Assembly: GCF_030013595.1 (NCBI RefSeq) | Contig: NZ_CP122768.1 | Strand: one strand, 5' to 3' | DNA length: 64,000 nt | Origin: Escherichia coli | GTDB taxonomy: Bacteria; Pseudomonadota; Gammaproteobacteria; Enterobacterales; Enterobacteriaceae | Part shown: piece by piece, positions 12,174 to 45,061 of the stretch | Layout: each line of letters starts with the position of its first letter | Numbering within the stretch: position 1 is the first letter of the stretch | The notes under the pieces: model-generated | What the model was told of the DNA's origin: nothing | The model's database searches: none | Seen by the model: the letters and a program-made list of their open reading frames with translations, nothing else | Made by a program: the position numbers and the translations under genes

Positions 12174-12197
12174 AGCGCCCAACCCATAGTGGGCGCT
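12174..12197. terminator. Stem-loop between convergent paoD and MFS transporter gene
   Basis: Inverted repeat agcgccca / tgggcgct; a T-rich run follows on the minus strand. Confidence 0.45.
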
Positions 12198-12240
12198 TAT
12201 CGCCTTGTGTAACTTATTCAGCAACGCGCGCCTCGCCGGA

Positions 12241-13434: not shown

Positions 13435-13509
13435 AGTGAAATTTCACAAAGATCAGGATAAAAGCCACCAGCCTATGGCCGATGGCTTTGCATCAATTCA
13501 GGAGAGGTT

Positions 13510-14646: not shown

Positions 14647-14832
14647 AAAAATCCCCATAAAAAACAACAGAGAGATACAGGTTTCCGACGGACAACGCTG
14701 CGGTGCTTTGCTTTGATGGGGTCATTATAGTGAGCAGAATTAGTGCTGATTAGGGGGCGATTAATGCTAAGATTAATACCATATTGTTATAAATTAATGT
14801 GGAGATTGCCGGCATGAAGGGGGGATGTTTCA

Positions 14833-15717: not shown

Positions 15718-16301
15718 ACGTTAACAACGACCGACTCTTCACTGTGCAAAATTGTGTCAGGTAGTCCCTCTGCGTTCAATTCCAGGGTCTGTACAGTCTG
15801 CTTTGAGCGAGAAAGAGGGGACTATCCAGCAATGGAGATCACCCAAAAGAAAAAACCACCTGGCTCCCTCGACAACCTTCATCCAGGCATTTAGCCTCAA
15901 TCAACATTTTTATATCTGTCAGGTTACTTCATGATGAAAACTGATCATTATCGTTGTTTTTGTTGCAATAGTAGAATACGCGTATTTATTCCTCCATCTC
16001 TATTAATAACGGCAATAAACTGTTCACTTCACTGATATTTAAAATATGTATCCTTTTCAAGCTGTTCAGCGGCGTAAGAAAAAGTATTAATTATGAATTC
16101 GATGATTTAACCATATCTGTCTGATTGGTAATCATCCGTGATTAATGCTGGTCTATTGATTACGCCAGCATTAACCGCTTAGGGATGTATTCTTCCTGTT
16201 CATATAGCCCTCGAAAAAGAGAGAAAATAAAACTGTGTCCAATATTAATTTACCACTCCAGACCGAAGCATCGGTGGGATTAGCAGAATGATCTGCGTCT
16301 G

Positions 16302-16517
16302 ATGTTGAGGCTGGCTCTTGCCGGCGCAGGCATAACAATTGCCACTCAGGAAACTTTCAGGCCATATATTGAAAGCGGTAAGCTTGTATCGCTGCTTGAT
16401 GACTTTCTTCCACAATTTCCGGGCTTCTATCTGTATTTCCCACAGCGTCGCAATATTGCACCAAAGCTCCGCGCCCTGATTGACCACGTCAAGGAATGGC
16501 GGCAGCAATTGGCTTAA
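16302..16517 (+). pseudogene. C-terminal fragment of a second LysR-family regulator (possibly the yagP-type remnant)
   Basis: 71 aa ORF resembles only the C-terminal end of LysR proteins; its motif FYLYFPQRRNIAPKLRALIDHV parallels LFLYYPHRNVSPALRMVIDTL at the end of the intact LysR at 14833-15717; no N-terminal HTH; abuts the island repeat. Confidence 0.5.
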
Positions 16518-16634
16518 ATGTCTGCACCTGCACTGCCTGATGTCAGAACAGTATTTTGATGAATTGCCAGGGTTACAATGGCACAAATACGGCACAGGAG
16601 GAAAATGTGGTGTAATTGAATGTGAGGTAACTAC

Positions 16635-16690
16635 TTGATTTAAATGGTGCCGATAAGAGGAGTCGAACCTCCGACCTTCGCATTACGAAT
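16635..16690 (-). repeat. Island-junction direct repeat: partial copy of the tRNA-Thr 3' end (about 47 nt) plus 9 bp of flank, not a functional tRNA
   Basis: 56 bp match to 44976-45031 with 2 mismatches; sequence diverges from thrW beyond the anticodon region. Confidence 0.85.
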
Positions 16691-16855
16691 TAGCGAGACC
16701 AGTGATTCAAGATGTTCACATCCGTTTCAGCATACAATAAAAAATATATAAAAATCAACAAAATAGACATAAATGCAGTATCAAGATGTTTCGCCTTGTT
16801 TCTGATGATATCATGTTAAATGTGTACCCCACTGTGTACCCAAAAGGCTGAAGAT

Positions 16856-18175
16856 ATGACTTTTACTATTACACAAGACAGACAATTGGCTTCATTGACC
16901 GTTACTAAAGAAGAAAAAGAAATCTTATTTGCTGTAAAATCTAAAGCTGGGGGAGGACTCTTTATACGCGTTCGTTATGGTAGCGACAATAAAAGCTGGA
17001 TTTATCGTTATCGAATAGCTCAAAAGCCAGCTAAATTAACACTAGGTAGTTACCCTGCCATGGGATTAGCTCAAGCTCGTAAAGCTCATGCGGATGCAAT
17101 TGAATTAGTAAGAAAAGGTATAGATCCTCGTCATATTAGAAAAAATGAAAAACAAAAAAATGAACAAATGATTATTTACTCTGAATTATGGAAAGATTGG
17201 ATAGAATTCAGAAAGACAAGTAAACCAATTAGCACCAGACCCCTTGCAGATTATGAAGGGACTTATCACCGCCACCTTGAAAAAGCATTAGGAAACCTTC
17301 GCATTGACGAACTTACCAAAAGCGTTATTTTTGAACATCTCAGTAATGTAAGAAAAACCAGTTCTGAAGCAGTTCGTAAAGGATTAATTATTCTAAATAT
17401 GACTCTTGATCATGCCAACTTACAGGGTATGCTTGAGCATAACCCAGCACGACTGCTCAAACCAGCAATGTTTGGTGCATCGATGAATAAACCTCGCGAG
17501 CGATGGCTTCCTGAGAATGAACTCCGGATGCTATGGAAGGCTTTGGATGATGCTACTGTTGGAGGAGGCTCCATTGCATCTGGTGGCTATGGAATTTCCT
17601 CTAGTGTGGTATTATCTCATTCTGTCGCAAATGCACTCCGTTTGATTATTTTCACAGGAGTGCGCCGCTCTGAAGCGGCACAAATGCGCTGGGATCAAAT
17701 TAATGGAGAGCGTTGGACCATACCAGCCACTAAAAATGGGAAAAGCCATATTGTTACTTTACATCCGTATATGCTTTCTTTAATAAAAACACAACGTGAA
17801 TTCACTGAAGGTGCATATGTTTTTGGTTCTACTAGCAAACCTGGCTTTCCCATCACAAATGACGCTCTGACTCGCGCGTTAGAAAGGGTTCGCTCTAAGT
17901 ATCTAGCCGAACTTACTCCATTTTCTCCTCATGATCTGCGTAGAAGTGTTGCGACTGGATGCGCTGAATACCTTGATGCTCCAGAGCGCCTAATAGAGTT
18001 ACTGTTAAATCATGTACCCAAAGACCGTTTAATACGAACATATCAAGTCGGACAACAAGCTGAAAAATTAAAAAATTTATTTATAGAATGGGGGAATTTT
18101 ATTATGAATAACGTCATTACTGTGCAGCAGAATGCTCCGGATAATGTTATTCATATAAAATTTGGGAACAGATGA
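16856..18175 (+). CDS. P4-type tyrosine integrase
   Basis: N-terminal arm-binding pattern GGGLFIRVRYGSDNKSWIYRYR...KLTLGSYP...LAQARK; C-terminal catalytic region with R...H..RR and Y; start set at second Met with weak SD (ORF track starts at 16820). Confidence 0.85.
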   Translation: MTFTITQDRQLASLTVTKEEKEILFAVKSKAGGGLFIRVRYGSDNKSWIYRYRIAQKPAKLTLGSYPAMGLAQARKAHADAIELVRKGIDPRHIRKNEKQKNEQMIIYSELWKDWIEFRKTSKPISTRPLADYEGTYHRHLEKALGNLRIDELTKSVIFEHLSNVRKTSSEAVRKGLIILNMTLDHANLQGMLEHNPARLLKPAMFGASMNKPRERWLPENELRMLWKALDDATVGGGSIASGGYGISSSVVLSHSVANALRLIIFTGVRRSEAAQMRWDQINGERWTIPATKNGKSHIVTLHPYMLSLIKTQREFTEGAYVFGSTSKPGFPITNDALTRALERVRSKYLAELTPFSPHDLRRSVATGCAEYLDAPERLIELLLNHVPKDRLIRTYQVGQQAEKLKNLFIEWGNFIMNNVITVQQNAPDNVIHIKFGNR

Positions 18176-18267
18176 TAAAAATACATGCATGGTCTGAGAT
18201 ACCCTGTCTACTCGACCATGCAGTATGGTTCAACTAAATCAGTCACAACAAGAAATGATTAGTTTTA

Positions 18268-19116
18268 TTAGATATTGTATGGGATTATTTCTGGATAATA
18301 CTTCGCAATGATGTCATTTAGCCGATCAACCAGTTCTGGTTTTCTGAACGTGATATGCGCGGAGCCCTTCTTAAAGTATCTGATGCTGAACATCTCATCT
18401 TCATAGCAGGCTTTGCCCTGAACGGAGCGGATGTGATCATCCAGCCGAATAATGATATTTTCCCGGCTGTCGGGGATCGGTTTGCCGCTGAACAGGTGCA
18501 GCATTCTTTCCAGGTCGGCAAGTCGATCTGCCTGTTGCCCGGTGATAAGATGCAATCCCCACCGGTCCCACCTCACCAGATTGTTGACGATAATTTTACT
18601 GCCAAATTTACAGGGGCAATTGGTTTTGTAATCCCAGCTCAGTCCCCTGAAGACGTTGATGCCCCCACGCTCAAACACTTCATCCTTATTCTGGTGTAGT
18701 TGCTCAAACGTACTCAGTATATTCTCTTCACTGATTTCCGGAAAATTATCGTACTCCAGTGACCGGTACCATGTATCACGGGCCTGTGCATCCATTAAGG
18801 AAAGCATCCCTGAACGTTGCATCAGGTCACGCCAGATTTCACGGTCAAGGTTGCGGGTGATGGCTTTCATTGCCGTTTCAGGTTTCTCCATCAGCCAGCA
18901 ACCGCAGCGAAAATCCTGTTTCATGGCCCAGTCCGGAGCAGTTTTACCTCCAATACTTTCTGTCATTGCTGATATTTCAGCCAGTTGCCGGATAAGTGTG
19001 TCGATTTGCAGCAGTGTGCTCTTTCGTACAGCCAAAATGTGGCGGATACTGGTTGAGCAGATAACGTCCGTATGCCCGTTGACCACTTCCGGACGGGAGA
19101 TTGTGATGTCTGACAT
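18268..19116 (-). CDS. DUF4942-like protein of CP4-type islands
   Basis: 282 aa ORF downstream of the cbtA module, a position where DUF4942 genes occur in CP4-44/CP4-57-like elements; recalled family resemblance only. Confidence 0.55.
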   Translation of the reverse strand: MSDITISRPEVVNGHTDVICSTSIRHILAVRKSTLLQIDTLIRQLAEISAMTESIGGKTAPDWAMKQDFRCGCWLMEKPETAMKAITRNLDREIWRDLMQRSGMLSLMDAQARDTWYRSLEYDNFPEISEENILSTFEQLHQNKDEVFERGGINVFRGLSWDYKTNCPCKFGSKIIVNNLVRWDRWGLHLITGQQADRLADLERMLHLFSGKPIPDSRENIIIRLDDHIRSVQGKACYEDEMFSIRYFKKGSAHITFRKPELVDRLNDIIAKYYPEIIPYNI

Positions 19117-19200
19117 TATCGGTTTCCCTTTTGGTTTATAAACGAAAACGCCAGCCCTGTTCAGGCTGACGTCAGTGGAATGAAGTATGGTGAGTGATAT

Positions 19201-19623
19201 TTACCGCTTCTGGTGCAGAAGCTGCAGATGACGAAGAGTACGGACATCCTCCCGGGCCTGTTCGATACAGGGCAACAGTGCTACCGAATCCGTTTTATCC
19301 TCATCGTTGTCAAAGATAATTCCCGATTCGCAGTCGATATTGTCCTGCAGCCACGCAATGAGGATATCCAGCGCTGTTTCAGTGGTTAATGGCATCACGC
19401 TCTGTATCACTGTATTGTCTTCCGGCAACTGATGAGGGCTGGCAGAAGTCGCCGGTGTTTCGGTAGCGTCACGTTCATTCACCACGCGGAGTGAATAACC
19501 GTTTTCAGCGACTTTGTTAATCAGTTCAGCGAGCTCAATACCATCGACGTCAACGACAATGCGCCCCATGTTCAGCGCCTGCGCATTAATGCTGTCGGCT
19601 TCCAGCGTCAGGGCCAGTTTCAT
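19201..19623 (-). CDS. YeeW-like small protein downstream of cbtA
   Basis: 140 aa ORF overlapping the cbtA stop by 4 nt; context matches yeeW. Confidence 0.5.
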   Translation of the reverse strand: MKLALTLEADSINAQALNMGRIVVDVDGIELAELINKVAENGYSLRVVNERDATETPATSASPHQLPEDNTVIQSVMPLTTETALDILIAWLQDNIDCESGIIFDNDEDKTDSVALLPCIEQAREDVRTLRHLQLLHQKR

Positions 19624-19997
19624 TGTTTCGCCCCCGGATGTTTACCCAGGGTAATGTTATTTACCGTTCTGTAGTTGTCGCGTGTCATCAGGCCGGTTGC
19701 CCGGCGTGCCCGGAGGATATCAATACTGTTTATTAACTGAGAACGGGTACAGGCGCTGAATCCCGGCTGGTCGGTACGTACCAGTGCGTATTTTTCAACG
19801 AGAAAGTTCACCGCATCGCACAGTGAAATGCCTGCCTCAATATGCTGCTCAATCACACGTTCATCAGCGAACGGTGTGTCATTCAGCGTAAGGCCGTAGT
19901 GCTGATCCAGCAGTCGGGTGAGCAGTGTCTGCCAGATTTCAACCGGAGACGGGCGTGAACTGGCCGCCTGCCCGGGTAATACAGGTAATGTTTTCAT
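19620..19997 (-). CDS. cbtA: CbtA/YeeV/YkfI-family type IV toxin (cytoskeleton-binding)
   Basis: Recalled near-identity to YeeV (MKTLPVLPG...SPVEIWQ...LLDQHYGLTLNDTPFADERVIEQHIEAGISLCDAVNFLVEKYALVR); ORF track start 20138 is an upstream extension. Confidence 0.9.
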   Translation of the reverse strand: MKTLPVLPGQAASSRPSPVEIWQTLLTRLLDQHYGLTLNDTPFADERVIEQHIEAGISLCDAVNFLVEKYALVRTDQPGFSACTRSQLINSIDILRARRATGLMTRDNYRTVNNITLGKHPGAKQ

Positions 19998-20086
19998 ACT
20001 GAAGATTTTCCTGAAATGCAGAGATGAAAAATGGAAAAGTGGCGTGGTGAAAGCACCAGGCCGGAGCAGAAGGTTATTCTGGAGAG

Positions 20087-20455
20087 TTACTTTTTCGTTT
20101 CGGGCGTCGGATAAACAGCCATATAAACGTAGCCACAACTGCCGAGGGTGTCGGCTTCGCAGGTCAGCCCTTTTGCATACAGCGTGACGGTATGCTGATG
20201 GCGGGGATTCAGTTCACCGCTGGTGAGCATGAGCTCCAGTTGTTTCATCAGCAGCGGAAAGGCCTGGTCTAGGTGGTACGAATCCGCGTCGCTGAACCGC
20301 CCTCTGATACCGGCGCGGTCGGCAAGGTAATGCAACCGGTTGCCTTCCTGTACCAGACGGGCACCAAAACAGGGCGTCACGGTGCAGGGCAGTCCCCACC
20401 AGGTGCGGTCGTTATTGTCGTCGGGAAGCGTTGTCCCGGGGAGTGTGTCTGACAC
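20087..20455 (-). CDS. cbeA: CbeA/YeeU-family type IV antitoxin
   Basis: 122 aa; recalled match to YeeU (MSDTLPGTT...WWGLPCTVTPCFGARLVQEGNRLHYLADRAGIRG); directly upstream of cbtA. Confidence 0.9.
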   Translation of the reverse strand: MSDTLPGTTLPDDNNDRTWWGLPCTVTPCFGARLVQEGNRLHYLADRAGIRGRFSDADSYHLDQAFPLLMKQLELMLTSGELNPRHQHTVTLYAKGLTCEADTLGSCGYVYMAVYPTPETKK

Positions 20456-20534
20456 GATAAAATCCTCACAGAAAATTGGTTAAGAATGGTCCGGTGGTGG
20501 CGATAATTCTGCTCTTCTGAATGCCCTTCCAGAC

Positions 20535-26938: not shown

Positions 26939-27052
26939 TATTCTATTAACAGCAAGGCAGTCACGCAAGAGAAAGAGGTGGGTATGAGGTGTTTGTGTCA
27001 TGTTTTCAGTTGGTTAACGCAATGTAATCAGGCATTTCCCCTGGCAGAGTGT

Positions 27053-27922
27053 TCAGAAGAAAATCCAGTTCCATACAGCGCGGGCAACAGAGACCACCGT
27101 GTCACGGACGACACGCAGAACCGTACGAGCCACAGAGGCAATACAGACGCTCTCCGCCGTGTCAAATATCCGGTCCACCGCACCGGTAAACTGTTCACGG
27201 GCCTGCCCCCGGACAGATTCCGTGCACAACTCGTCCTGCAGGCGGGTCATCAGGGGACTGGCGGCATGGTCGGGAAGTGCTGTCATGAGCGCACTGACCA
27301 GCGTATCCAGTTCCCAGCCGGTGCGGGCCGATACGGCCACAACCGGATGTACGGGCCGGAACAGCCGGAATACCGCATCTGTTTTCTCACGAATGTTCTG
27401 TTCCTGTGCGGGAGAAGGCTGAATACCTGCCATATCCCATTCATGGCAGGGCTCCGTTTTGTCGGCCTGCGTCACCACAAACAGCACCTGCTGATGTCCC
27501 CGGTGCAGGATGTGTCGCCAGAAATACTCATCCACAGACAGGGCACGGTCATCGGCTTTAATCAGCCACAGTACCAGGTCAAGTTCAGGCAGAATGTCAC
27601 GGTACAGGGCTTCATACTCTGCATCCCTGTCCCGGCTCTCGCCCACCCCGGGTAGGTCAGTGATAACCATGCTGTGACCATGGCCACTCAGACGGAAGCG
27701 CTGCGCTTCCCGGGTGCCGGCGTGAACATCACTGACCGGGGTGACCTCCCCCTGAAACAGTGCATTACAGAGTGAGGATTTACCGGCCCCGCTTTTCCCC
27801 ATAATGCCAATCACGGGTTCGTGGCTGGTGAGTTTGCGCAGATGTTCCAGGATGTGACGGGAAAGTGAGTAAGGAAGAGAAGAAAGTGGTTTTTCAATTG
27901 CCTCAATGGCATCAGACGGATT
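27053..27922 (-). CDS. YfjP/YkfA/YeeP-family GTPase
   Basis: Walker A GIMGKSGAGKSS, G3 DLPG, G4 TQADK; start set at MNPSDAIEAIEK; ORF track start 27964. Confidence 0.85.
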   Translation of the reverse strand, partial: NPSDAIEAIEKPLSSLPYSLSRHILEHLRKLTSHEPVIGIMGKSGAGKSSLCNALFQGEVTPVSDVHAGTREAQRFRLSGHGHSMVITDLPGVGESRDRDAEYEALYRDILPELDLVLWLIKADDRALSVDEYFWRHILHRGHQQVLFVVTQADKTEPCHEWDMAGIQPSPAQEQNIREKTDAVFRLFRPVHPVVAVSARTGWELDTLVSALMTALPDHAASPLMTRLQDELCTESVRGQAREQFTGAVDRIFDTAESVCIASVARTVLRVVRDTVVSVARAVWNWIFF

Positions 27923-28255
27923 CATACATGTATTCCCGGTGAAAAAAGACAAAACCCCGCGCACCGGAAAGGTGGCGGGGGATTCACGGAGATAATATCT
28001 GTCTGAAATTATTTAGGATGCAGGTATCTTCAGATAATCGCACCCCCAGAATTTTATTCTTAATAGTTGAATAGTGGTATTTGGTTTCCCTGAGAGAATA
28101 TAAAGATGAATCATGCTGTATTGAGTTTGATTCTATTTGTACTGAGACAGGTATCTTCATGATTATAATCAAAAGCCGGGTGGATTGGTCTGGCGCTAAT
28201 TATTTTCTCGAATAAACTCACTAATTATTGTAACCATCCCAAAGGAGATGATTTT

Positions 28256-30400
28256 ATGTATAATTGTGGTGAATCATATTCAGAATACGACATATCATTA
28301 TCTGACGATGAAAACTATAACGATGACTATTATCGTGAGCGCCCGTGCCCGGGAGAAGTTTTCGGCTATGATAATGATGTACCACGGTTTAGTAAGATTG
28401 CACGGTCTTATTTGCTCCACGTGGGTAGCCTTGACTGGACCAAGATAAATCCGGATATCTTTGGCTCCATGATTCAGGCAATTGCCGAAGATGAAGAGCG
28501 CGGAGAGCTGGGTATGCATTACACCAGCGTACCCAACATCTTAAAAGTTTTGAATCCACTATTTCTTGACGACCTGCGTGCACAGCTGGACGAGGCTGGT
28601 GACAATCCACGTATGTTGCTGAACCTGCGCAAACGCATTTCCCACATTCGTGTGTTCGACCCAGCGTGCGGTTCTGGGAACTTTTTGGTTATCGCGTATA
28701 AGGAAATGCGTGCCATTGAGGCCGAAATCAACAAGAGGCGCAGTGAGCCGGATCGTGCCTCGGATATTCCACTTACCAACTTTCGCGGGATTGAACTACG
28801 AGATTTCCCGGCAGAAATCGCCCGCCTTGCGCTTGTTATCGCTGAGTACCAATGTGATGTGCTGTACCGTGGGCTGCGGCTGGCCTTGGCTGAGCTTCTT
28901 CCTTTACGCAACGAAAATTGGATTACTTGTGGCAATGCACTGCGGCTCGACTGGTTAAGAATTTGTCCGCCAACGGGAACCAGTGTGAAATTACATGGTG
29001 ACGACTTGTTTGGATCACCGCTTGATCAGGCAGAGATTGACTTTGAAAATGAAGGAGGAGAGACATATATTTGTGGAAATCCTCCATACAAGGGTAGCCA
29101 AACCCAAACTGATGACCAAAAAAATGATCTAAAAGCCATATTCGAGAAACGCACAACTAATTGGAAGTCATTGGATTATGTTGCAGGTTGGTTTATGAAG
29201 GCTGTCGACTACGGTAGTCAAACTAACTCGTCTGCTGCGTTCGTCTCAACTAATTCCATTTGTCAAGGTAGACAGGTCGAAACCCTTTGGTCGTTGATTT
29301 TTGCAGCCAAGCATGAAATATCCTTTGCTTATACGTCCTTCAAATGGGCAAATCTTGCTAGCCACAATGCGGGAGTGAGTGTCATTGTTGTGGGAATTTC
29401 TAATCATGTTAAGGGCCCCCGGAAAATATTTTCCACAACTGAGGATTTGGGGACCATCATAAAAGAAGTAGACAACATCAATGCGTATCTTGTCGCGGGT
29501 AAAAGCACAATTGTTGCACAGCGAAGTTTTCCTTTATCCGAAGTAAGTGTAATGGATTTTGGTTCAATGGCGAACGATGGTGGTGGCCTTCTTTTTGACA
29601 GTTCAGAATCAAGTCGTGCAGTTAATGATTATGGTGCTGATATTTGTTATTTTCGAAAGGCTTGGGGAGCTAAGGAGTTTATTTCTGGAACTCCTAGAGC
29701 TTGCCTGTGGTTAAATAAAGACAGTGCTAAAAAAGCAATTCTGAACTCTTGGATTTCAGACCGAATTGAGATCACACGTAAGGCCAGAGCAAATAGTCCT
29801 CGGGCAGCGACAAAAAAACTAGCAGATATTGCTTACAGATTTGGTGAAGTGAGGCAAGACGGCAGCGAGCGAATCATTATTGTTCCCAGTGTCAGTTCTG
29901 AACGTAGGGAGTATCTTCCATGTGGTTATCTCGATGTTGGTTCAATCGTTATCGCTCCGAATCTTGCTTTCTATGATTCCCCGCTTTGGAATATGGCGCT
30001 TATTGCTTCTAGGTTGCATTTGGTATGGGTGGCGACAGTCTGCGGGCGTATCAAAACTGACTATCGCTACTCTAATACCCTTGGCTGGAATACTTTCCCT
30101 GTCCCACCACTCACTGAGAAAAACAAGGCCGACCTTACGCGTTGCGCAGAGGATATCCTACTGGCGCGGGAACACCACTTCCCTGCGACTATTGCGGATT
30201 TGTATGATCCCGCGAACATGCCCCCTGACCTGCGTGCTGCCCATGAACGAAACGACGAAGTGCTGGAACGCATCTATATAGGGCGACGATTCAAGAACGA
30301 CACTGAGCGGCTGGAAAAGTTGTTCGACCTCTACACGAAAATGATTGCTTCGACTGCACCGGTCAAAGGTAAGAAGCGCAAAGCAGGAAATAACGAATGA
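28256..30400 (+). CDS. N6-adenine DNA methyltransferase, gamma-class, MmeI/PglX-like, without nuclease domain
   Basis: 714 aa; strong SD aaaggaga 8 nt before ATG; SAM motif I VFDPACGSGNFLV at about aa 135 and catalytic motif IV CGNPPYKG at about aa 277; upstream HYTS helical region; about 430 aa C-terminal presumed target-recognition region. Confidence 0.8.
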   Translation: MYNCGESYSEYDISLSDDENYNDDYYRERPCPGEVFGYDNDVPRFSKIARSYLLHVGSLDWTKINPDIFGSMIQAIAEDEERGELGMHYTSVPNILKVLNPLFLDDLRAQLDEAGDNPRMLLNLRKRISHIRVFDPACGSGNFLVIAYKEMRAIEAEINKRRSEPDRASDIPLTNFRGIELRDFPAEIARLALVIAEYQCDVLYRGLRLALAELLPLRNENWITCGNALRLDWLRICPPTGTSVKLHGDDLFGSPLDQAEIDFENEGGETYICGNPPYKGSQTQTDDQKNDLKAIFEKRTTNWKSLDYVAGWFMKAVDYGSQTNSSAAFVSTNSICQGRQVETLWSLIFAAKHEISFAYTSFKWANLASHNAGVSVIVVGISNHVKGPRKIFSTTEDLGTIIKEVDNINAYLVAGKSTIVAQRSFPLSEVSVMDFGSMANDGGGLLFDSSESSRAVNDYGADICYFRKAWGAKEFISGTPRACLWLNKDSAKKAILNSWISDRIEITRKARANSPRAATKKLADIAYRFGEVRQDGSERIIIVPSVSSERREYLPCGYLDVGSIVIAPNLAFYDSPLWNMALIASRLHLVWVATVCGRIKTDYRYSNTLGWNTFPVPPLTEKNKADLTRCAEDILLAREHHFPATIADLYDPANMPPDLRAAHERNDEVLERIYIGRRFKNDTERLEKLFDLYTKMIASTAPVKGKKRKAGNNE

Positions 30401-32442
30401 ACAATAAAATCAAGAATGTACCTTCCGTTTCCGTTACTTATGCACGTAATGGCGCATCAACCAAAGCTAATGTGCTTGGGATGCGTCCTATGCAGGAGAG
30501 AGCTTATGAAAAGCGCGGCGAGCAGTACTTGCTTATCAAATCACCACCGGCATCAGGTAAAAGCCGCGCACTGATGTTCATAGCACTCGACAAACTCGAA
30601 AACCAAGGGATTAAACAGGCAATCATCGTTGTGCCGGAAAAATCTATCGGCGCGAGTTTCAACGATGAACCGCTATCGCAGTTTGGATTCTGGGCTGATT
30701 GGCATGTCGAACCTAAGTGGAACCTATGCAACGCGCCCGGTAACGACAACGGGGGCAAGGTAAGATCTTTTGGCTCTTTTCTTGAAAGTAGCGACAAGGT
30801 GCTTGTTTGCACACACGCAACCTTTCGCTTCGCGGTCGATGCCTATGGCGTAGAAGCGTTTGACGATCGCCTGATCGCCGTCGATGAATTCCACCATGTG
30901 TCAGCTAACCCGGATAACAAGCTTGGTCAGCATCTGGGGCAGTTCATCGCGCGTGATAAGACACACATCGTTGCCATGACCGGCTCCTACTTCCGTGGTG
31001 ATGCGGAGGCCGTTTTGGCTCCTCAGGATGAGTCCAGGTTCGATACCGTCACCTATACCTACTACGAACAACTCAACGGTTACGAATACCTCAAGCAACT
31101 CGATATCGGCTACTTCTTTTACAGTGGCTCCTACGTCGATGACATCCTTAATGTCCTCGATCCTGACAAAAAGACCATTATCCATATACCCAACGTCAAT
31201 TCGCGCGAGAGCACGAAGGATAAAATCAAGGAAGTGGAGCATATTCTTAGCGAGCTTGGCGATTGGCAAGGTGCGGATCCTGCGACTGGTTTCCAGCTAG
31301 TCAAATGCCTCGATGGCCGAATGTTGCGTATAGCTGATCTGGTGGACCCAACTAGTCAAGGCAAGATTCAGGAAAGCCTTCGTGCTGCAGAAATGAAGAC
31401 AGACCGTGACTATGTAGACATCATTATTGCACTTGGTATGGCGAAGGAAGGTTTTGACTGGATTTGGTGCGAACATGCGCTGACCGTTGGCTACCGTGCC
31501 AGCCTGACTGAGATCGTGCAGATTATCGGTCGCGCTACTCGCGACGCGCCGGGTAAAAACCGCGCAAGGTTTACTAACCTGATCGCCGAGCCGGATGCTG
31601 TTGAGGGGGCTGTCACCGAGGCAGTCAACGATACCTTGAAAGCCATCGCGGCAAGCCTGCTGATGGAGCAAGTATTAGCTCCGCGCTTCGAGTTCAAGCC
31701 TAAGAACCCAGAAAGTGGTCCGGCCCCAGGCTTTGATTATGGTGATGGTGGATATGACCCGGATAGCTGTAATTTTGGTGTTAATGAGCAGACAGGGACG
31801 TATCAAATCGAGATTAAGGGACTTGCCGAGCCCAGGAGCAAAGAGGCGGCACGCATCTGCCAGGAAGATTTAAACGAAGTGATCGCGGCCTTTGTGCAGG
31901 ATAAGCCCGCCATCGAACGAGGCCTGTTCGATGAAGAGCTGATTCCTGAAGAGTTAACTCAGGTTCGTATGGGTAAGATCATCAAAGAAAAGTATCCTGA
32001 GCTTGATGCTGAAGATCAGGAGGCTGTACGTCAGCATGCTATCGCCGCCCTTAACCTCACGCAGCAGGCCAAGCGTCTTGCCACCGACGATAACGATGGG
32101 ACGCTCAATACTGCTCTTATTGACGGAGTGCGTCGCTTTGCGATGGATGTGCGCGATTTAGACATAGACCTTATCGACCGCATCAATCCCTTTGGTGAAG
32201 CCTACGCTATCCTTGCTAAGACGATGAGTGAAGACAGTTTGAAGCAGGTCGCGGCGGCAATCTCGGCCAAGCGTACCTCGATCACACCTGAAGATGCCAA
32301 GGTGATCGCCAAGCGTGCCGCTGAATTCAAACGTGAACGTGGCCGCCTCCCATCGTTAACTTCGCCGGATGCTTGGGAAAAACACCTTGCTGAAGGTGCA
32401 GCTGCGTTTATGCGTTTTAGGGCGGAGGGACGTTATGAATAA
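30397..32442 (+). CDS. SF2 (DEAD/DEAH, ResIII-like) helicase with about 300 aa uncharacterised C-terminal extension
   Basis: 681 aa; ATGA overlap with MTase stop; Walker A SPPASGKSRA, DExH box IAVDEFHHV, motif III MTGSYF, motif VI QIIGRATRD. Confidence 0.8.
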   Translation: MNNKIKNVPSVSVTYARNGASTKANVLGMRPMQERAYEKRGEQYLLIKSPPASGKSRALMFIALDKLENQGIKQAIIVVPEKSIGASFNDEPLSQFGFWADWHVEPKWNLCNAPGNDNGGKVRSFGSFLESSDKVLVCTHATFRFAVDAYGVEAFDDRLIAVDEFHHVSANPDNKLGQHLGQFIARDKTHIVAMTGSYFRGDAEAVLAPQDESRFDTVTYTYYEQLNGYEYLKQLDIGYFFYSGSYVDDILNVLDPDKKTIIHIPNVNSRESTKDKIKEVEHILSELGDWQGADPATGFQLVKCLDGRMLRIADLVDPTSQGKIQESLRAAEMKTDRDYVDIIIALGMAKEGFDWIWCEHALTVGYRASLTEIVQIIGRATRDAPGKNRARFTNLIAEPDAVEGAVTEAVNDTLKAIAASLLMEQVLAPRFEFKPKNPESGPAPGFDYGDGGYDPDSCNFGVNEQTGTYQIEIKGLAEPRSKEAARICQEDLNEVIAAFVQDKPAIERGLFDEELIPEELTQVRMGKIIKEKYPELDAEDQEAVRQHAIAALNLTQQAKRLATDDNDGTLNTALIDGVRRFAMDVRDLDIDLIDRINPFGEAYAILAKTMSEDSLKQVAAAISAKRTSITPEDAKVIAKRAAEFKRERGRLPSLTSPDAWEKHLAEGAAAFMRFRAEGRYE

Positions 32443-33613
32443 TTCTGATTTAGACGATTTGGCAGCAGAACTTGCCGAGTTTGCACCACCTGAGAAGAAA
32501 AAAGGACGTCCAGCCAGCGAGGAACGCATCATAGCCGGTTTTGAAGAGATCCAGCGCTTTACTGAGCAACATGGGCGTGTCCCGCAACATGGCGAAGAGC
32601 GTGATATCTTCGAGCGTCTCTATGCAGTGCGGCTCGACCGCCTACGCAGTCTCCCAGACTGCCGTGCCTTGCTAGAGCCACTGGATCATCAGGGCTTATT
32701 AGCTGGAGGGGGCGATGTAGCGGAGTCTGCGGACGAAATTATCGATATCGATAACTTGGCTGCCGAACTGGCGGATGTTTCCAGCGAGGACGATATCACG
32801 GTCTTGCGTCATGTTCGTGCTAGCACCGAAAAGCGCGTTGTACAAGGAGTTGCGGATCGCAAGCCGTGCGAGGATTTTGATGCGTTCAAACCACTATTTG
32901 AGCAGGTACGCAATGATCTAAGTTCAGGGTTAAGAGTGACCCGACCTTTTGGGCAGTATGCAACGATTGAAGTGGGTCATTGGTTTATCCTGGATGGTCA
33001 AACGGCTTATGTGTCTGAGGAAGGTGAAGAGTTCGATTCTCCACAGGGGAAGAAAGATGCTCGGCTGCGTGTCATTTATTCGAATGGTACAGAAAGCAAC
33101 CTACTTCGGCTGTCATTGGTTCGTGCTTTGTATAAAGACGAAACAGCGCGTCGAATTACCGATCCAGACATGGGGCCTTTATTCAGCGATGCTCTAGAAG
33201 AGAGCGATCTAGAAAGTGGCACTATTTATGTGTTGCGTTCGCTATCTGATAACCCTTATGTAGCTGAACATCGTGATGTCATTCACAAGATTGGAGTGAC
33301 TGGCGGCAAAGTAGAGGCGCGTATTGCCAATGCGGAACACGATTCCACCTATCTGTTAGCGAAAGTCGAGGTGGTAGCTTCATACAAGCTTGCAGGCATC
33401 AACAGCACCCGGATGGAAAACCTGTTTCACAGGTTGTTTGCACCCGCAAGGCTTAACATTACCATTAACGACCGTTTCGGCCATCCAGTGCAGCCCGAGG
33501 AATGGTTTCTCGTTCCGTTATTCGTTATCGATGAGGCTGTTGCACGTATTAAGGATGGTAGCATCATTGGGTATGTTTATGACCCCATGTCTGCGAAACT
33601 GGTGAAGGCATAG
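32435..33613 (+). CDS. Protein with C-terminal T5orf172 / GIY-YIG-superfamily domain
   Basis: 392 aa; start ATG 32435 overlaps the helicase stop by 8 nt and has GGAGGG SD; C-terminus GTIYVLRS...HKIGVTGGKVEARI...ENLFHRLF...EEWFLVP matches the T5orf172/GIY-YIG pattern; N-terminus has two acidic repeats DLDDLAAELAEF and DIDNLAAELADV. Confidence 0.7.
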   Translation: MNNSDLDDLAAELAEFAPPEKKKGRPASEERIIAGFEEIQRFTEQHGRVPQHGEERDIFERLYAVRLDRLRSLPDCRALLEPLDHQGLLAGGGDVAESADEIIDIDNLAAELADVSSEDDITVLRHVRASTEKRVVQGVADRKPCEDFDAFKPLFEQVRNDLSSGLRVTRPFGQYATIEVGHWFILDGQTAYVSEEGEEFDSPQGKKDARLRVIYSNGTESNLLRLSLVRALYKDETARRITDPDMGPLFSDALEESDLESGTIYVLRSLSDNPYVAEHRDVIHKIGVTGGKVEARIANAEHDSTYLLAKVEVVASYKLAGINSTRMENLFHRLFAPARLNITINDRFGHPVQPEEWFLVPLFVIDEAVARIKDGSIIGYVYDPMSAKLVKA

Positions 33614-33650
33614 TGAAGTGACACACTGAATTTGGCCACCTGTTCTGAGG
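33614..33650 (+). repeat. IS3-family (IS911-like) terminal inverted-repeat-like sequence abutting the stop codon of the T5orf172 gene
   Basis: TGAAGTGACACACTGAATTTGGCCACC starts one base after the TAG stop; shares TGAAGTG...GGCCACC termini with the IR at 33838-33864. Confidence 0.5.
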
Positions 33651-33837
33651 TGAGTATATCACCTCAGAACAGCACAGGAATAAAAGATACTGATTTGAAT
33701 GTGCCTATACTTTGTGATGTGAGGATCAATGAATAGTAACCTGATCAAGATATGTTACCGTGGTGAGACTGGTGAAAGTGGTGAAAGTGATCTAAGAACA
33801 TTGATACTTGGTGAGATTCTATATATCTCACTATGAA

Positions 33838-34262
<425 letters not shown>

Positions 34263-34426
34263 TAAGCGTCGTCTGAGTACCGTCTGGTCCCGAATCCAGG
34301 ATCCTGTAACTTAAGCACCCACTTATTTTGCAGGTGGACACCTCATGCGCACCAAAGAACGACTCCCCCGGAAACGCTATTCTCCTGAATTTAAAATGGA
34401 ACTGGTCAGGCTGGCCCTTGAACAAG

Positions 34427-36191
34427 ATATCACGAACGGTGCAATAGTGGTTCTTCCGCAACTTGGGTGGAAGAAAATGGATGAAACTTTCTGGTGAACA
34501 AGGATCTAAGCTGTTTTAAGTTATGGGCAACGCAATGCACTCTCTTAAGACACTTCTACAGTTACCTTGCGGATGGCGATGCAGTCGACAAATTATTAGC
34601 TCTGACGGTATCACCCTCCATCTCCACGGAAAACGCAAAACAGCACAATGTCCTGAATGCTCTAAGCGTAGCGACTCTGTTCATAGTTCTCGTCGGCGCC
34701 GGATACAGCATCTACCCTGCTCCGGGCAGACGCTATGGCTTGTATTTTCCGTCCGCCACTGGTACTGCCGTAACCCGGCTTGTTCACGTAAAATTTTTGC
34801 CGAGTCGCTTGCTCCCTTCGCCGGTTCACACCAGCAGTCTTCACAGGCGTTACAAAATTTACAACGTCAACTGGGATTAATAGCTGGAGGTGAGGCTGGA
34901 AAACGGGCTGCAACGGCAGCGGGTCTCCGTTGCAGTGCTGATACTCTTCTTCGCAGGGTTATCAATACCCCGGAGACGAAACAGTCAGGCGCGCCTCATG
35001 TCGGTATTGATGAGTGGGCGTGGCATCGGGGCCACTGCTGCGGTATGTTAATAGTCAATCTTGATACTCACCGTCCCCTCGTCCTGCTTCCCGGCCGTGA
35101 TCAGCGTACGCTGGCGACCTGGTTCAGAAAATATCCGGAAATACAGGTTGTCTCGCGTGATCGCAGTGGAGTCTATGCGACAGCAGCACGTGAAGGTGCA
35201 CCTCAGGCCAGACAGGTGGCCGATCGATGGCACCTGCTAAAAAATATTGGTGATGAGCCTGAACGAATGATGTACAGACATATACCTCTGATACGTCTTG
35301 TTGCCAGTGAGTTGTCACCAAAGAAATCACCTGAGCCAGAACTGTCTGTGCCTGCAGCATCGCTCCGTCGTCCGGAACGCCTTAAACAGCAAACCCGCAA
35401 AAAACGGCATCAGCGTTGGACAGAGGTTATGGCCCTGCATAACAAGGGATGTAGTTTCAGGGAAATATCCCGTATTACAGGCCTGTCGCGTGTGACAGTC
35501 AGTCGCTGAGTACGTTCAGGAACATTCCCTGAAATGTCAACCCGACCTCCAAAGCGAGGGCTTTTGGACCCATGGAGGGAGTGGTTAAAAGAGCAACGAG
35601 AAAGTGGGAATTATAACGCCAGCCGGATAATGGCGGGAAATGGTGGTCCGGGGGTTTACAGGCAGTGAAACCATTGTCAGGGATACTGTTGCCAAATGGC
35701 GTAAAGGCTGGATCCCACCGGTTACTACTGCCGTCAGACTTCCTTCAGTGTCCCGGGTAAGGCGCTGGTTGATGCCCTGGAGAATAATCAGGGATGAAGA
35801 AAATTATGCTTCCCGATTTATTAGTCTGATGTGTGAAAAAGAACCGGAGCTGAAAATAGCGCAGCAACTGGTACTCGAGTTCTACCGTATTCTGAAAACC
35901 CAAAATAAATCACAGCTTAGCAGCTGGTTCACTCGAGTCCACGAAAGCGGTTCAGCAGAACTTCGGCGCGTGGCTGCGGGGATGGAAGCTGATGCTGCGG
36001 CTATATGTGAGGCAATCAGCAGTCGCTGGAGTAATGGTGTTGTCGAAGGTCATGTAAATCGCCTGAAGATGTTGAAACGCCAGATGTATGGTCGAGCCGG
36101 ATTTGAACTGCTCAGGCAGAGGGTCATGAGTCCACTGGCATGAAAATCTCCACCCAAGTTGCGGAAGAACCACTTTTCATCCGTCGTTGAC
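34427..36191 (+). mobile_element. ISL3-family insertion sequence nested in IS66 tnpA
   Basis: Perfect 23 bp terminal inverted repeats ggttcttccgcaacttgggtgga (34449-34471) and tccacccaagttgcggaagaacc (36149-36171), extending imperfectly outward; removing 34427-36196 restores the IS66 tnpA frame. Confidence 0.75.
34523..36143 (+). pseudogene. ISL3-family transposase, disrupted by an in-frame stop and a frameshift
   Basis: Two ORFs (34523-35509 and 35640-36143); N-terminal zinc-finger-like HLHGKRKTAQCPECS and C-terminal WSNGVVEGHVNRLKMLKRQMYGRAGFELLRQRV typical of ISL3 transposases; TGA at 35507-35509 followed by a frame change. Confidence 0.75.
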
Positions 36192-36498: not shown

Positions 36499-36840
36499 AT
36501 GATAAATCTTCCCGCAGGCACAAAAATCTGGCTGGTTGCCGGTATCACCGATATGCGCAACGGCTTCAATGGTCTCGCCGCAAAGGTGCAGACAGCGTTG
36601 AAAGATGACCCGATGTCCGGCCACGTCTTCATCTTCCGGGGCCGCAGCGGCAGTCAGGTCAAACTGCTGTGGTCCACCGGCGACGGACTGTGCCTGCTGA
36701 CCAAAAGGCTGGAGCGTGGCCGCTTCGCCTGGCCGTCGACCCGCGATGGCAAAGTGTTCCTGACGCCGGCGCAGCTGGCGATGCTGATGGAAGGTATCGA
36801 CTGGCGACAGCCAAAGCGGTTACTGACGTCCCTGACATGT
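36499..36840 (+). CDS. tnpB: IS66-family TnpB (orf2)
   Basis: MINLPAGTKIWLVAGITDMRNGFNGLAAKVQTALKDDPMSGHVFIFRGRSGSQVKLLW...GIDWRQPKR matches IS66 orf2; ATGA overlap with preceding tnpA frame; 3' end merges into the truncation junction. Confidence 0.7.
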
Positions 36841-37684
36841 TGTAGCCCAGGTCTTCTTCGTTGATAAAGTTCACATCCAGAGGATGGATACTTCCTGTAG
36901 CCCGTAATATCGTCGGTTCAATATCCTGCACATTCATCGGGATCACCGATGCAAGAAAAGCCCATTGATCAGAATAAGGCTGGAAATTAATATCAACAAA
37001 AACGCTTCCCCCCGATGCACGCGGTCTTTTTTGCAGAGGTAACGCGATAAGATTACCAAATCCTCCTTTTGGCATAGTATCCTGATTAGGAAATAATCGG
37101 TCATAAGAACTCAATTGCAGCTGTCGGGTCCGGCTGCACGTATAGCTAATAATAGCAGTCCCCAGACGGCGAGCTTCGCGGGCCGAAACTCGTGAAGCAA
37201 AAAATATCCAGACATGCGCTCCCTGACGTGAGCGGGATATTTCCAGCGCAGCAGGTACACTCAGCTCATCACAGGCTCGCATGAACGCGGATGCATCCTT
37301 CTGCCATTCAGCTTTATCAAAATCAACAGCCAGAAAATAACAGGAATCATCTTCCAGCAACGGATATAACCCGGCAGTATGCGTGCCTGCCAGATGCTGG
37401 TAGATGACAAGATCAGATACAGGGAGTAACTGACGGTGCGTACAGTCCCCGCATTTTATCCGGGGTTTACCGCATATTCTCGCCTGCCATTCGTTAGCGC
37501 AGGCAGGAGAGTACCCTGATTTGCCGCTGGTTTTACTTTCCCAACGAAGGGCCCATATATCATCACGCCCACGAAACAACCGACGAAATAATGCAACCTT
37601 CTCGTCGGTGGATAATACGGAAACGCGCTGCACAGGGCTCGGCGGTTTACGTCGCCATTCCAAGTAATGAGACCAGACGGGCAT
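36841..37684 (-). pseudogene. Archaeo-eukaryotic primase (AEP / Prim-Pol)-like gene, 3'-truncated by the IS66 remnant
   Basis: N-terminal LFRRLFRGRDDIWALRWE, DxD motif FLAVDFDK, GAHVWIFF and GGFGNLIALP motifs; the last third of the listed 341 aa ORF is antisense IS66 tnpB sequence. Confidence 0.6.
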
Positions 37685-39423: not shown

Positions 39424-40874
39424 TCAGAGGTCAAAGTTAGGTGCGACACACAACGTTTTTCCCTCAATAACCGGTACAACTCTGTTTTGTTCATACAGTA
39501 AATCCAGTAACCAGTTGATTTTATCCTTTTTCCGGAAACGGTTCGGACCACGCTGTAAAATGTCATTTTTTTTCATACAGAGGATCCCCTTCTCAATGCA
39601 ATAGCTTTTTATCCAGTTGAAAAGTTCAAGCTCCTCTGGAATGAGTCGCACAGGTACGGTCAGGGCAGGGTTGTCAAAAGTTAACGGATTAGACAACCGC
39701 ACATACTCATTACCGTACCATATTGCTAATTCTCTCGCCATTTCTGCAATGTAAGGGGAAATCTCCCCCTCCTCACCGCTCGAATGGTAAATAAGTCCTG
39801 CCAGTCTTGCCATATACTCTGCATTTTTAGCAGCATATTCCCGGCAATGTCTTAAAGGCCCCAATCCCCCCAGCTTCGATTCCACATCATTGTAATAATC
39901 CGTCCAGATTCTGGCAGCCTGAGGAGAAAAGTGAAGGCAACGTCGTTCACCACTCATCGCCAGACTTTCATCAATAAGCTCATTGATCCTCTGTTCAAAC
40001 AAATCCTGATACTGTGATGAATAATTATCTCCGGTTATTATCCTTGTCCCCTGCGTTGATGTTGGTTGACACATCAAAAACCTTGCATGATGTCCTGACG
40101 TTTTCACAAGTTCTTTTTTTCGCGTACAAAAACCTTTGTGGTAAACATCAGGCTGAATCATCGCCGACATCGTCAGTCTTGGCTCCTTCAAATTAATTCC
40201 GGGAGATGATTTCCTGTCGATGAAAAGAGAACCTCCATCCCACAAAGTGTTAATAATTCCCAGTTTACTCATGGCCCGGCTGTCAAAAATTCCCCCCCTT
40301 CACTGGATACAAGAGCAAAAGAACGATTGCTATCGGAGTAATATTTTAACATTCCCTCTATCGTTGTCTCATTAAAAATTGTTCGACGTATCTGCGGCGG
40401 AACAGGAGACTTATTCAGATGCGTTTCAAGCTCTGATTCTGTTGCCTTGTAATCTTTACCGGCACGAATCTCTTTATGAAATTTTGATTCCAGCGCTTTT
40501 TGTTTTTGCTCCCATATTTCCTTTTCTGTGCTGTAATTCTCAACCAGTTTCGCGTATTCTTCCGCCAGGGCTTCATCCCTGAGATAAAATGCTTTCATAA
40601 ACACTTTATCCACGGTCGTTTTCCTTTCACCAGAATCAGCCAGAATCAGAGAGTAAAGATTAACAGGCCCACGTAAATTTCCAGGTCTGCACACGTCAAT
40701 CTGATTCTGACAGGCAATTGAGATCGCTGTTAATGCGGATGTCGCCACCATAGCCAAAGGTGCCTGTGTATTTTTTTGAGTTTCAATTATTGCATTTCTC
40801 ACCAGCGGTGGTAGTGCATATATCGGATAAGGATTTTCTGGTGCAAGTAAGCACATAAAAGCCTCTCTTTTCAT
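39424..40874 (-). pseudogene. YfjI-like DUF3987 protein gene split by a frameshift in a C7/G7 homopolymer
   Basis: Two ORFs (40874-40269, 201 aa; 40272-39424, 282 aa) in adjacent frames; both frames are open across the C7 run at 40292-40298 and one extra C would fuse them into about 483 aa. Confidence 0.6.
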
Positions 40875-44975: not shown

Positions 44976-45031
44976 TTGATTTAAATGGTGCCGATAATAG
45001 GAGTCGAACCTACGACCTTCGCATTACGAAT
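44976..45031 (-). repeat. Island-junction direct repeat overlapping the 3' part of thrW
   Basis: 56 bp match to 16635-16690 with 2 mismatches. Confidence 0.85.
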
Positions 45032-45061
45032 GCGCTGCTCTACCAACTGAGCTATATCGGC
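44986..45061 (-). tRNA. thrW: tRNA-Thr (anticodon CGT)
   Basis: Reverse complement reads GCCGATATAGCTCAGTTGGTAGAGCAGCGCATTCGTAATGCGAAGGTCGTAGGTTCGACTCCTATTATCGGCACCA; 76 nt with CCA end, located next to proA. Confidence 0.95.

Follow-up and report, generated by a model that had tools for sequence, protein, structure and literature searches.

The 714-aa ORF located at positions 28256-30400 of the analysed DNA (the window; a stretch of 64,000 nucleotides of the Escherichia coli contig NZ_CP122768.1) is very probably a chimeric remnant that arose by one deletion within a known three-gene E. coli system. It is an ordinary decayed gene, with no new enzyme architecture, and its N-terminal part was lost recently, by a deletion restricted to a single E. 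coli lineage and not by evolution of a shorter layout.

Domains and motifs of the fusion ORF

The frame (+ strand) is open throughout all 714 codons. A Pfam search of the encoded protein identified (i) an MmeI-type gamma-class N6-adenine methyltransferase domain (MmeI_Mtase, PF20473; aa 111-392, positions 28586..29431, + strand; E 7.7e-116), (ii) an MmeI-type target recognition domain (TRD; MmeI_TRD, PF20466; aa 415-619, 29498..30112, + strand; E 4.7e-73), also recognized by its fold match to MmeI (PDB 5HR4), and (iii) the MmeI C-terminal helical bundle (MmeI_C, PF20467; aa 621-697, 30116..30346, + strand; E 8e-18). Neither MmeI_N nor MmeI_hel was found by Pfam in this ORF, and the PADLOC type IIG model PDLC03598 is matched only over its profile positions 260-910 of 912. 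The absence of approx. 255 N-terminal residues of the family architecture is confirmed, and is far beyond chance.

A first-pass annotation, made from the nucleotide sequence, had noted that motif I (FDPACGSGNFL) lies only about 135 aa from the N-terminus, preceded by the HYTS region, and had described the protein as an MmeI/PglX-type enzyme. The positions are correct: motif I occupies aa 134-144 (28655-28687) and HYTS aa 88-91. The long region following NPPY (aa 275-278, 29078-29089), previously proposed to be the target-recognition module, indeed contains MmeI_TRD. In an alignment of 32 sequences, the motif I and NPPY residues of the methyltransferase domain are invariant. The MmeI part of the assignment is also well founded, since 5HR4 is both the top sequence match of the 928-aa parental protein described below (phmmer, E 4e-132) and the best fold match of the AF2 model of the fusion (Foldseek E 2e-53, 32% identity); CamA and M.BseCI, two stand-alone methyltransferases, come next by fold.

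The AF2 model is confident from approx. aa 90 onwards, including the methyltransferase, TRD and C-terminal domains. The pLDDT is 30-40 in aa 1-40 and stays below 55 up to approx. aa 90. Modelling of aa 1-60, which had been recommended as a search for a residual nuclease fold, met a segment in which aa 1-59 are not confidently modelled and aa 1-40 originate from another gene.

The deletion and the chimeric 5′ end

Comparison (blastn) with the corresponding locus of E. coli H8 (L001) revealed that the window is colinear with it up to L001 position 7376, after which 2,291 bp are missing. L001 7373-7376 and 9668-9671 coincide at the tetranucleotide TAAT; this 4-bp overlap, visible in the overlapping blastn segments and in the breakpoint sequences read directly, places the junction, with its TAAT microhomology, at 28372..28375 of the window. 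The part of the fusion located 5′ to the junction (28256..28375, + strand) consists of 40 codons from the beginning of a small conserved ORF, as demonstrated by blastn and by translation: aa 1-40 are those of WP_000282126.1, a protein of 60 aa in other E. coli, and the translation of L001 7257-7439 is identical in this part. The remaining residues (aa 41-714) match residues 255-928 of WP_001385107.1 at 100% identity.

The segment directly following the junction (28376..28585, + strand; fusion aa 41-110, i.e. parent residues 255-324) is a remnant of the region between Pfam MmeI_hel and MmeI_Mtase, delimited with the phmmer alignment to 5HR4, and it holds the conserved LDW..INPDIFGSMIQ and HYTS motifs. 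The breakpoint corresponds approximately to MmeI residue 267, which is within the structural helical spacer (MmeI 156-300; limits from PMC4833311). The fusion ORF has a strong AGGAG ribosome-binding site and an ATG, both belonging to the small ORF, and a promoter scan of the region 5′ to it yielded a single site (28142-28169), no better than chance.

Neither the missing 254 aa (tblastn) nor the deleted 2,291 bp (blastn) gave a significant match anywhere in the window. These searches rule out an N-terminus encoded separately in the window, in line with the earlier remark that no upstream frame could account for it. Of the two possibilities left by the first-pass annotation, i.e. that the N-terminus was lost or had never been present, the former is borne out by the 2,291-bp deletion and the latter is excluded. 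That the event was a deletion in this strain, as opposed to an insertion in the others, is deduced from parsimony; strong, albeit indirect, evidence for it is the conservation of the full-length domain set across phyla.

The course of events is as follows. The lineage of the window has lost the 2,291 bp lying between two copies of the tetranucleotide TAAT. With them went the 3′ end of the small ORF located upstream, some IS66 debris, and, from the methyltransferase gene, its native promoter, its start and codons 1-254. These codons correspond to the whole of Pfam MmeI_N and MmeI_hel; of the helical spacer as defined by structure, about three quarters is gone. By chance the two breakpoints are in frame, and the ribosome-binding site, ATG and 40 codons of the small ORF now run into methyltransferase codon 255. 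If transcribed and folded, the fusion could bind an asymmetric site via its TRD and methylate one adenine; at best, the window copy is predicted to be an orphan methyltransferase. Since it is devoid of the N-terminal module proposed to recruit the helicase and the GIY-YIG nuclease encoded downstream, the restriction/defence activity of the triad has most likely been lost or uncoupled here, leaving an r- m+ or r- m- remnant.

Parental allele and its distribution

In other E. coli strains, e.g. H8 of assembly GCF_001900835.1, the parental gene encodes a protein of 928 aa, in which Pfam finds the complete set of five MmeI domains: MmeI_N (residues 1-159), MmeI_hel (170-250), methyltransferase (325-606), TRD (629-833) and C-terminal domain (835-911). 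The parental locus lies in a CP4-6-like island at thrW, in approx. 68 complete E. coli genomes, this number referring to genomes with at least 80% of the full-length gene. The fusion junction is present in none of 5,426 complete E. coli genomes. The 714-aa protein occurs, without any change, on 19 contigs; these belong to draft or other assemblies, which differ elsewhere (one isolate with the fusion allele is GCA_900448395.1), and four fusion loci from four NCBI assemblies (one on a 3.4-Mb contig) are 99.2-99.99% identical to the window.

Among the 120 closest homologue clusters, 115 comprise proteins of at least 900 aa, all with the five MmeI Pfam domains. The other five are shorter than 900 aa and none of them is the 714-aa form, and the idea that the short form is a common natural variant was rejected on these counts. 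Pseudomonas aeruginosa has this triad as well, and its genes overlap by 4 nt and 8 nt as they do here. In other strains, the same methyltransferase gene has been broken separately by IS3 and ISKpn26, with the helicase and nuclease genes intact.

Downstream partner genes

The stop codon of the fusion ORF (at 30400) overlaps by 4 nt the start of an intact gene (30397..32442, + strand) encoding a YeeB-like SF2 DEAD/DEAH helicase of 681 aa. Its translation, which matches Pfam DEAD and ResIII, shows GKS, DEFH and QxxGRxxR motifs and is identical to WP_001060305.1 of strain H8 (RefSeq name DEAD/DEAH box helicase). The third gene (32435..33613, + strand), whose first 8 nt lie within the helicase gene, is also intact and encodes a YeeC-like GIY-YIG/T5orf172 nuclease-family protein of 392 aa, so classified by Pfam and by its RefSeq name. 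The Pfam matches lie in aa 262-372 (T5orf172, 3.9e-11; MUG113, 5.8e-13), and the protein differs from that of H8 by 1 aa. PADLOC and NCBIfam contain no model for the helicase and the GIY-YIG protein, the sole match being a faint one to PbeA (E 5e-5); with PHROGs, the helicase is assigned only to the generic 'DNA helicase' and the nuclease gave no match.

The N-terminal domain lacks the PD-ExK motif

The part lost from the window copy had been taken for an endonuclease domain, an interpretation that has to be corrected. In a MAFFT alignment of the 928-aa parent and nine full-length relatives with MmeI, the columns of the catalytic residues D70, E80 and K82 of MmeI are not conserved; they contain mostly G/A, hydrophobic and S/V/A/T residues, with a single D (in the D70 column of one relative) in eleven sequences. 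MmeI residues 1-107 in this alignment were checked against the numbering of PMC2731913 and against position 108 of the program-made alignment. The phmmer alignment of the parent to MmeI begins only at residue 88, and a PDB search with just its first 153 aa gave no match to MmeI, only chance matches to serpins (E ~0.7). Judging from these comparisons, the lost domain is not an active PD-ExK endonuclease, which agrees with Morgan et al. 2009 (PMC2731913). In the same paper the N-terminal domain of the YeeA group is proposed, as a speculation, to be an interaction module. The truncation takes away the very domain proposed to couple the methyltransferase with the helicase and the nuclease.

Alternative explanations

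The idea that cleavage has been delegated to the downstream genes, which the first-pass annotation had derived from the short N-terminus, is already known: it dates from 2009, when it was put forward for the family in its full-length form, N-terminal domain included (PMC2731913). As a published hypothesis on this family it stands, and the partner genes are intact; as a deduction from the truncation it fails, because the truncation gives no evidence for it. The stronger version, that the ORF is a naturally evolved MmeI/PglX-type methyltransferase without a nuclease domain, with the helicase and the GIY-YIG protein as its cleavage module, could draw on the translational coupling of the two intact genes to the methyltransferase ORF, on the published proposal, and on the yeeAB homologues of Vibrio crassostreae, which give resistance to some phages that is lost in the mutants. 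We consider it very improbable, however, since the short form is found only in one E. coli lineage, with a 2,291-bp deletion and a chimeric 5′ end, members with helicase and nuclease partners keep the N-terminal region of approx. 255 aa, and the truncation removes the candidate coupling domain. An assembly or sequencing artefact, with no deletion in the organism, can be practically dismissed: its sole point is that the junction is absent from the complete RefSeq E. coli genomes, against which stand the identical junction and protein on 19 contigs and the near identity of the four independently assembled loci to the window.

A chimeric remnant formed by deletion is therefore the reading retained, and there is a substantial chance, slightly short of even, that this remnant is a dead pseudogene, unexpressed, or misfolded without the three quarters of the helical spacer that pack on the methyltransferase domain, and that it performs no methylation. 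Such an outcome departs from the best explanation only in function. The deletion of the native promoter and start, the lack of an above-chance promoter signal upstream, the first ~90 residues modelled without confidence and the decay of the locus in other strains all speak for it. On the other hand, the frame is open in all 714 codons behind a strong AGGAG site, an identical protein has been kept in assemblies that differ elsewhere, the AF2 model is confident in the methyltransferase, TRD and C-terminal domains, and enzymes of this layout are known that act as stand-alone methyltransferases (PMC4833311). That the fusion works as an m6A methyltransferase orphaned only lately, with expression driven by the signals of the small ORF, appears rather unlikely.

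In E. coli, at least three independent events (the deletion and the insertions of IS3 and ISKpn26) have disrupted the methyltransferase gene of the triad, with the helicase and GIY-YIG genes left intact. This repeated breakage could mean that inactivation of the specificity subunit is a safe, selected off-switch, or that YeeB-YeeC has a function independent of the methyltransferase.

Significance

The result is mostly a correction: what looks like a novel architecture when one genome is viewed by itself is a deletion, at the level of strains, in a system already described in 2009. Annotation would be misled by the chimeric 5′ end, and a RefSeq-style name such as "class I SAM-dependent DNA methyltransferase" hides the truncation. 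Natural alleles lacking exactly MmeI_N and MmeI_hel can be compared with isogenic full-length alleles of other E. coli strains. This comparison bears on a possible role of the N-terminal module of the YeeA-YeeB-YeeC group in linking recognition of the site with the helicase and nuclease. If the ORF does act as an orphan methyltransferase, the allele would constitute a natural domain-deletion experiment on the non-catalytic MmeI_N.

Comparison with known systems

The closest known system is YeeA (DnmA)-YeeB-YeeC of Bacillus subtilis. The YeeA group, which forms the 'second set' of MmeI homologues in Morgan et al. 2009 (PMC2731913), comprises proteins without PD-ExK, flanked by a helicase and a GIY-YIG gene. 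The H8 parent has the same organization in one operon of an acquired island: a PD-ExK-less MmeI-like methyltransferase with TRD, then a DEAD-type helicase, then a GIY-YIG/T5orf172 protein. Membership is assigned here by the defining features given in PMC2731913. The features of an MmeI homologue minus PD-ExK, with the helicase gene next and the GIY-YIG/T5orf172 gene after it, are all present at the locus, although for the first of them the window copy keeps only the rest of the protein beyond the N-terminal part. The ~900-950 aa with a non-catalytic N-terminal domain and helical spacer, typical of the group, are found in the parent and not in the window copy, in which the first 254 residues (MmeI_N and MmeI_hel) are gone and 40 foreign residues stand in their place. 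Because of this loss of residues 1-254, the window copy is a truncated derivative of a YeeA/DnmA-YeeB-YeeC member. In B. subtilis, DnmA alone is an active m6A methyltransferase, and cells survive the deletion of dnmA (PMC7261158). YeeA-YeeB-YeeC of this species shows no phenotype in restriction or with phages.

MmeI-family enzymes cut DNA approx. 20/18 nt from their site and modify one strand. The type IIL enzyme MmeI (5HR4) is homologous to the parent over the whole length of the methyltransferase, TRD and C-terminal bundle, and shares the Pfam MmeI_* set. It differs in that a single bifunctional chain, encoded without partner genes, includes a nuclease domain with the catalytic residues D70/E80/K82. 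The parent is devoid of the nuclease motif and the window copy of the whole domain, and at this locus as well as in P. aeruginosa overlapping genes for a helicase and a GIY-YIG protein come next.

BREX PglX (BrxX) is likewise a gamma-class N6-adenine methyltransferase with an MmeI-like TRD, which modifies one strand of an asymmetric site. The PglX-type half of the initial description did not hold: the NCBIfam BREX-1, BREX-2 and BREX-6 PglX models gave 21-29 bits vs curated cut-offs of 400-900, and PglX/BREX membership was rejected on these scores. The PglX likeness is confined to ~70 residues around motif I (PADLOC), the fold match has an E of 1e-12 vs 2e-53 for MmeI, and no brx, pglZ or other BREX genes were found among the neighbours.

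Type ISP enzymes (LlaGI and LlaBIII, which are among the distant fold matches of the fusion) and type I R-M systems resemble the parental triad in combining a nuclease, an SF2 helicase/translocase, a gamma-class methyltransferase and a TRD; the type I analogy for the YeeA group was drawn by Morgan et al. (PMC2731913). Type ISP enzymes differ in having all these activities in one chain with an Mrr-like nuclease, whereas the parental triad consists of three genes with a GIY-YIG nuclease. A further group of similar proteins, CamA, M.BseCI and M.TaqI, contains a methyltransferase core and TRD, which is the remaining content of the fusion (for the comparison with M.TaqI, see PMC4833311). These are evolved solitary enzymes, in contrast to the fusion, an accidental truncation in which the C-terminal bundle of MmeI is kept, together with a short piece of the helical spacer. 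As for the complete YeeABC group, we know of no demonstration of ATP-dependent cleavage; the parental triad shares with the type I and type ISP systems its set of components, and the window copy shares with the solitary enzymes what the deletion has left.

Origin of the short methyltransferase gene

The 714-aa methyltransferase encoded by the ORF 28256-30400 (+ strand) is a fusion protein. Blastn comparison of the window with locus L001 of E. coli H8, whose methyltransferase gene (2,787 nt) encodes a 928-aa protein (WP_001385107.1; the parent), revealed colinearity broken by a single gap: window sequence ending at 28375 corresponds to L001 sequence ending at 7376, and window sequence starting at 28372 to L001 sequence starting at 9668. 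These segments share 4 bp, and direct reading of the three sequences identified TAAT at both H8 breakpoints and a single TAAT at the window junction. The 2,291 bases present in H8 and missing from the window consist of four parts: one third (the 3′ end) of a 60-codon ORF (WP_000282126.1), fragments of IS66, the intergenic DNA preceding the methyltransferase gene and the first 254 codons of this gene. The junction is in frame; residues 1-40 of the fusion are those of the small ORF, and residues 41-714 are 100% identical to residues 255-928 of the parent. The deleted DNA and the missing 254 aa are not encoded elsewhere in the 64-kb window.

A megablast search with window positions 27000-34500 (7.5 kb) against 5,426 complete E. 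coli genomes showed that this query is covered in 64 of them. Among the 25 matches listed, each is in at least two pieces and spans at least 9.8 kb, compared with 7.5 kb in the query. The junction is found in none of the 5,426 genomes. The full-length methyltransferase gene is present in 68 complete genomes. The small acidic ORF (60 aa; L001 7257-7439, with its first 40 codons at window 28256-28375), which has a strong ribosome-binding site and adjoins a YkfA-like GTPase gene, lies in the part of the junction query contributing to matches in 855 complete genomes.

An assembly artefact was considered and rejected, because the exact 714-aa protein occurs on 19 contigs, and the four copies read in as many NCBI assemblies, one of them on a 3.4-Mb contig, show 99.2-99.99% identity with the window. 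The short form thus exists as a real allele in one lineage. The first-pass annotation left undecided whether the N-terminus had been lost or had never existed. It has been lost, and the deletion is the derived state: among the 120 nearest clusters of homologues, which share at least 68% identity and come from many phyla, 115 have all five MmeI domains and a length of 900 aa or more.

Domain structure of the fusion protein

The parent contains the Pfam domains MmeI_N (aa 1-159; E 2e-33), MmeI_hel (aa 170-250; E 8e-25), MmeI_Mtase (aa 325-606), MmeI_TRD (aa 629-833) and MmeI_C (aa 835-911), of which the first two were cleanly removed by the deletion. No N-terminal MmeI domain was detected by Pfam in the fusion, which contains MmeI_Mtase (aa 111-392; E 8e-116), MmeI_TRD (aa 415-619; E 5e-73) and MmeI_C (aa 621-697; E 8e-18), with the motifs HYTS (aa 88-91), FDPACGSGNFL (motif I; aa 134-144) and NPPY (aa 275-278). 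The best match in PADLOC, to a type IIG enzyme profile of 912 positions, starts only at profile position 260. The initial description of an MmeI-type enzyme without its N-terminal region was thus accurate, approximately 255 residues being missing.

In the crystal structure of MmeI, the domains are the nuclease (residues 1-155), helical spacer (156-300), methyltransferase (301-620), TRD (621-825) and C-terminal bundle (826-919) (PMC4833311). A phmmer alignment of the parent to MmeI places the breakpoint at approximately residue 267, so that about 34 residues at the end of the structural spacer are left. An AlphaFold2 model computed for the fusion from 32 sequences gave a mean pLDDT of 78 and a pTM of 0.76. 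A residual nuclease fold, for which structural modelling had been proposed, is absent, since the model is of high confidence only from about residue 90 on and aa 1-59 are below pLDDT 50.

Genetic context

The methyltransferase, helicase and nuclease genes are located in a CP4-6-like island adjoining thrW (tRNA-Thr; 44986-45061), which also carries CbtA/YeeU toxin-antitoxin genes, an antirestriction gene, DUF932, Ag43, a YkfA-like GTPase gene and, throughout, many IS fragments. Between IS debris and thrW lies a gene (36659-37684, - strand) for a 341-aa PrimPol-like protein (PADLOC PDLC01465, E 2e-128; NCBIfam PrimPol type A1, E 4e-25). Two adjacent overlapping ORFs (39424-40272 and 40269-40874, - strand), in an AT-rich stretch adjoining thrW, match positions 245-423 (C-terminal part) and 56-228 (N-terminal part), respectively, of the phage-type DNA helicase family phrog_2373; judging from these matches, they look like one helicase gene split by a frameshift.

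An 8.4-kb stretch (12118-20491) is missing from E. coli H8 at the corresponding position. It encodes a NepI-like MFS transporter, a lactonase-like protein, a YafC-like LysR regulator, a tyrosine-integrase-like protein (16820-18175, in a 40% GC segment) and a 281-aa protein (18268-19116, - strand) resembling phage DNA methyltransferases (phrog_6263, E 9e-18). This region may be a second small integrated element.

Decay and variation of the locus in E. coli

The locus is in repeated decay in E. coli. The methyltransferase gene has been independently broken by an IS3-family element near codon 605 in CDE2901-yvys and by ISKpn26 near codon 704 in DSM 103246; in both disrupted loci, L002 (NZ_CP170179, 8910-13009) and L010 (NZ_CP019944, 3410-7395), the helicase and GIY-YIG genes are intact. 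Annotation names the 3′ fragments 'type IIL restriction-modification enzyme MmeI'. Disruption of the methyltransferase/specificity gene is evidently tolerated, as expected if cleavage depends on that subunit. EC15 and OW967003 match over only part of this gene. Other E. coli alleles (hits H101-H114) show 78-90% identity only over its first ~1,340-1,500 nt, the TRD half being unmatched, which is the pattern expected of allelic variants with different recognition specificities.

Comparison with known systems

MmeI homologues fall into two sets: true type IIL enzymes with catalytic D70, E80 and K82, and a second set, typified by B. subtilis YeeA, which is without the PD-ExK motif, diverges over its first ~100 residues and shows no endonuclease activity (Morgan et al. 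2009, PMC2731913). Members of the second set "invariably" have a DEAD-type helicase (YeeB) and a GIY-YIG protein (YeeC) as neighbours; according to a speculation by the authors, both dock onto the altered N-terminal domain in a type I-like manner (PMC2731913).

By these features, the E. coli parent fits this second set. It aligns to MmeI (phmmer) only from residue 88, and in the parent and nine full-length relatives the D70/E80/K82 columns are mostly G/A, hydrophobic and S/V/A/T, respectively, with D at the D70 column in one relative. MmeI residues 1-107 in this alignment were entered by hand and then checked against published numbering (E25, E51, D70, E80, K82; PMC2731913) and position 108 of the tool alignment. 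The catalytic residues not being kept, the lost part was not an active nuclease domain.

The methyltransferase gene is followed by genes for a 681-aa helicase (30397-32442; DEAD/ResIII) and a 392-aa GIY-YIG protein (32435-33613; T5orf172/MUG113), which overlap their upstream neighbours by 4 and 8 nt, respectively. P. aeruginosa has the same arrangement. One relative of 916 aa (L009 of GCA_003280135.1, 6001-8751) has all five MmeI domains and 46% identity in the N-terminal region, with no helicase or T5orf172 gene within 6 kb; going by the alignment for its PD-ExK status, the flanking rule may have exceptions.

DnmA (YeeA) alone methylates GACGAG to m6A, and deletion of dnmA, yeeB or yeeC in B. 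subtilis produced no growth, transformation or phage phenotype (PMC7261158, PMC9973331); Vibrio crassostreae lost its resistance to one subset of phages when yeeAB was inactivated (bioRxiv 10.1101/2021.05.05.442762). The fusion retains the complete methyltransferase core, TRD and C-terminal bundle with no change from the parental sequence. Its partner genes encode the same helicase as in H8 and a nuclease with a 1-aa difference. Ahead of the fusion ORF is a good ribosome-binding site (AGGAG); the window no longer has the native promoter, and the sole promoter-like site upstream is within chance expectation. Any coupled restriction has most likely been lost, and methylation would be either kept as an orphan activity or likewise lost.

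The best PDB match of the fusion model is MmeI (5HR4, E 2e-53), followed by the stand-alone methyltransferases CamA and M.BseCI, whereas PglX/BrxX is matched only at E ~1e-12. The first-pass reading stands as regards an MmeI-type enzyme that lost its N-terminus, but not as regards an active nuclease or the view that truncation implies cleavage delegated to the downstream genes. Such delegation is an existing hypothesis for the full-length family and, if anything, is undermined for the fusion allele. The nuclease-less architecture arose by accident, through a recent deletion in an already known system; the delegation idea has likewise been published before (PMC2731913).
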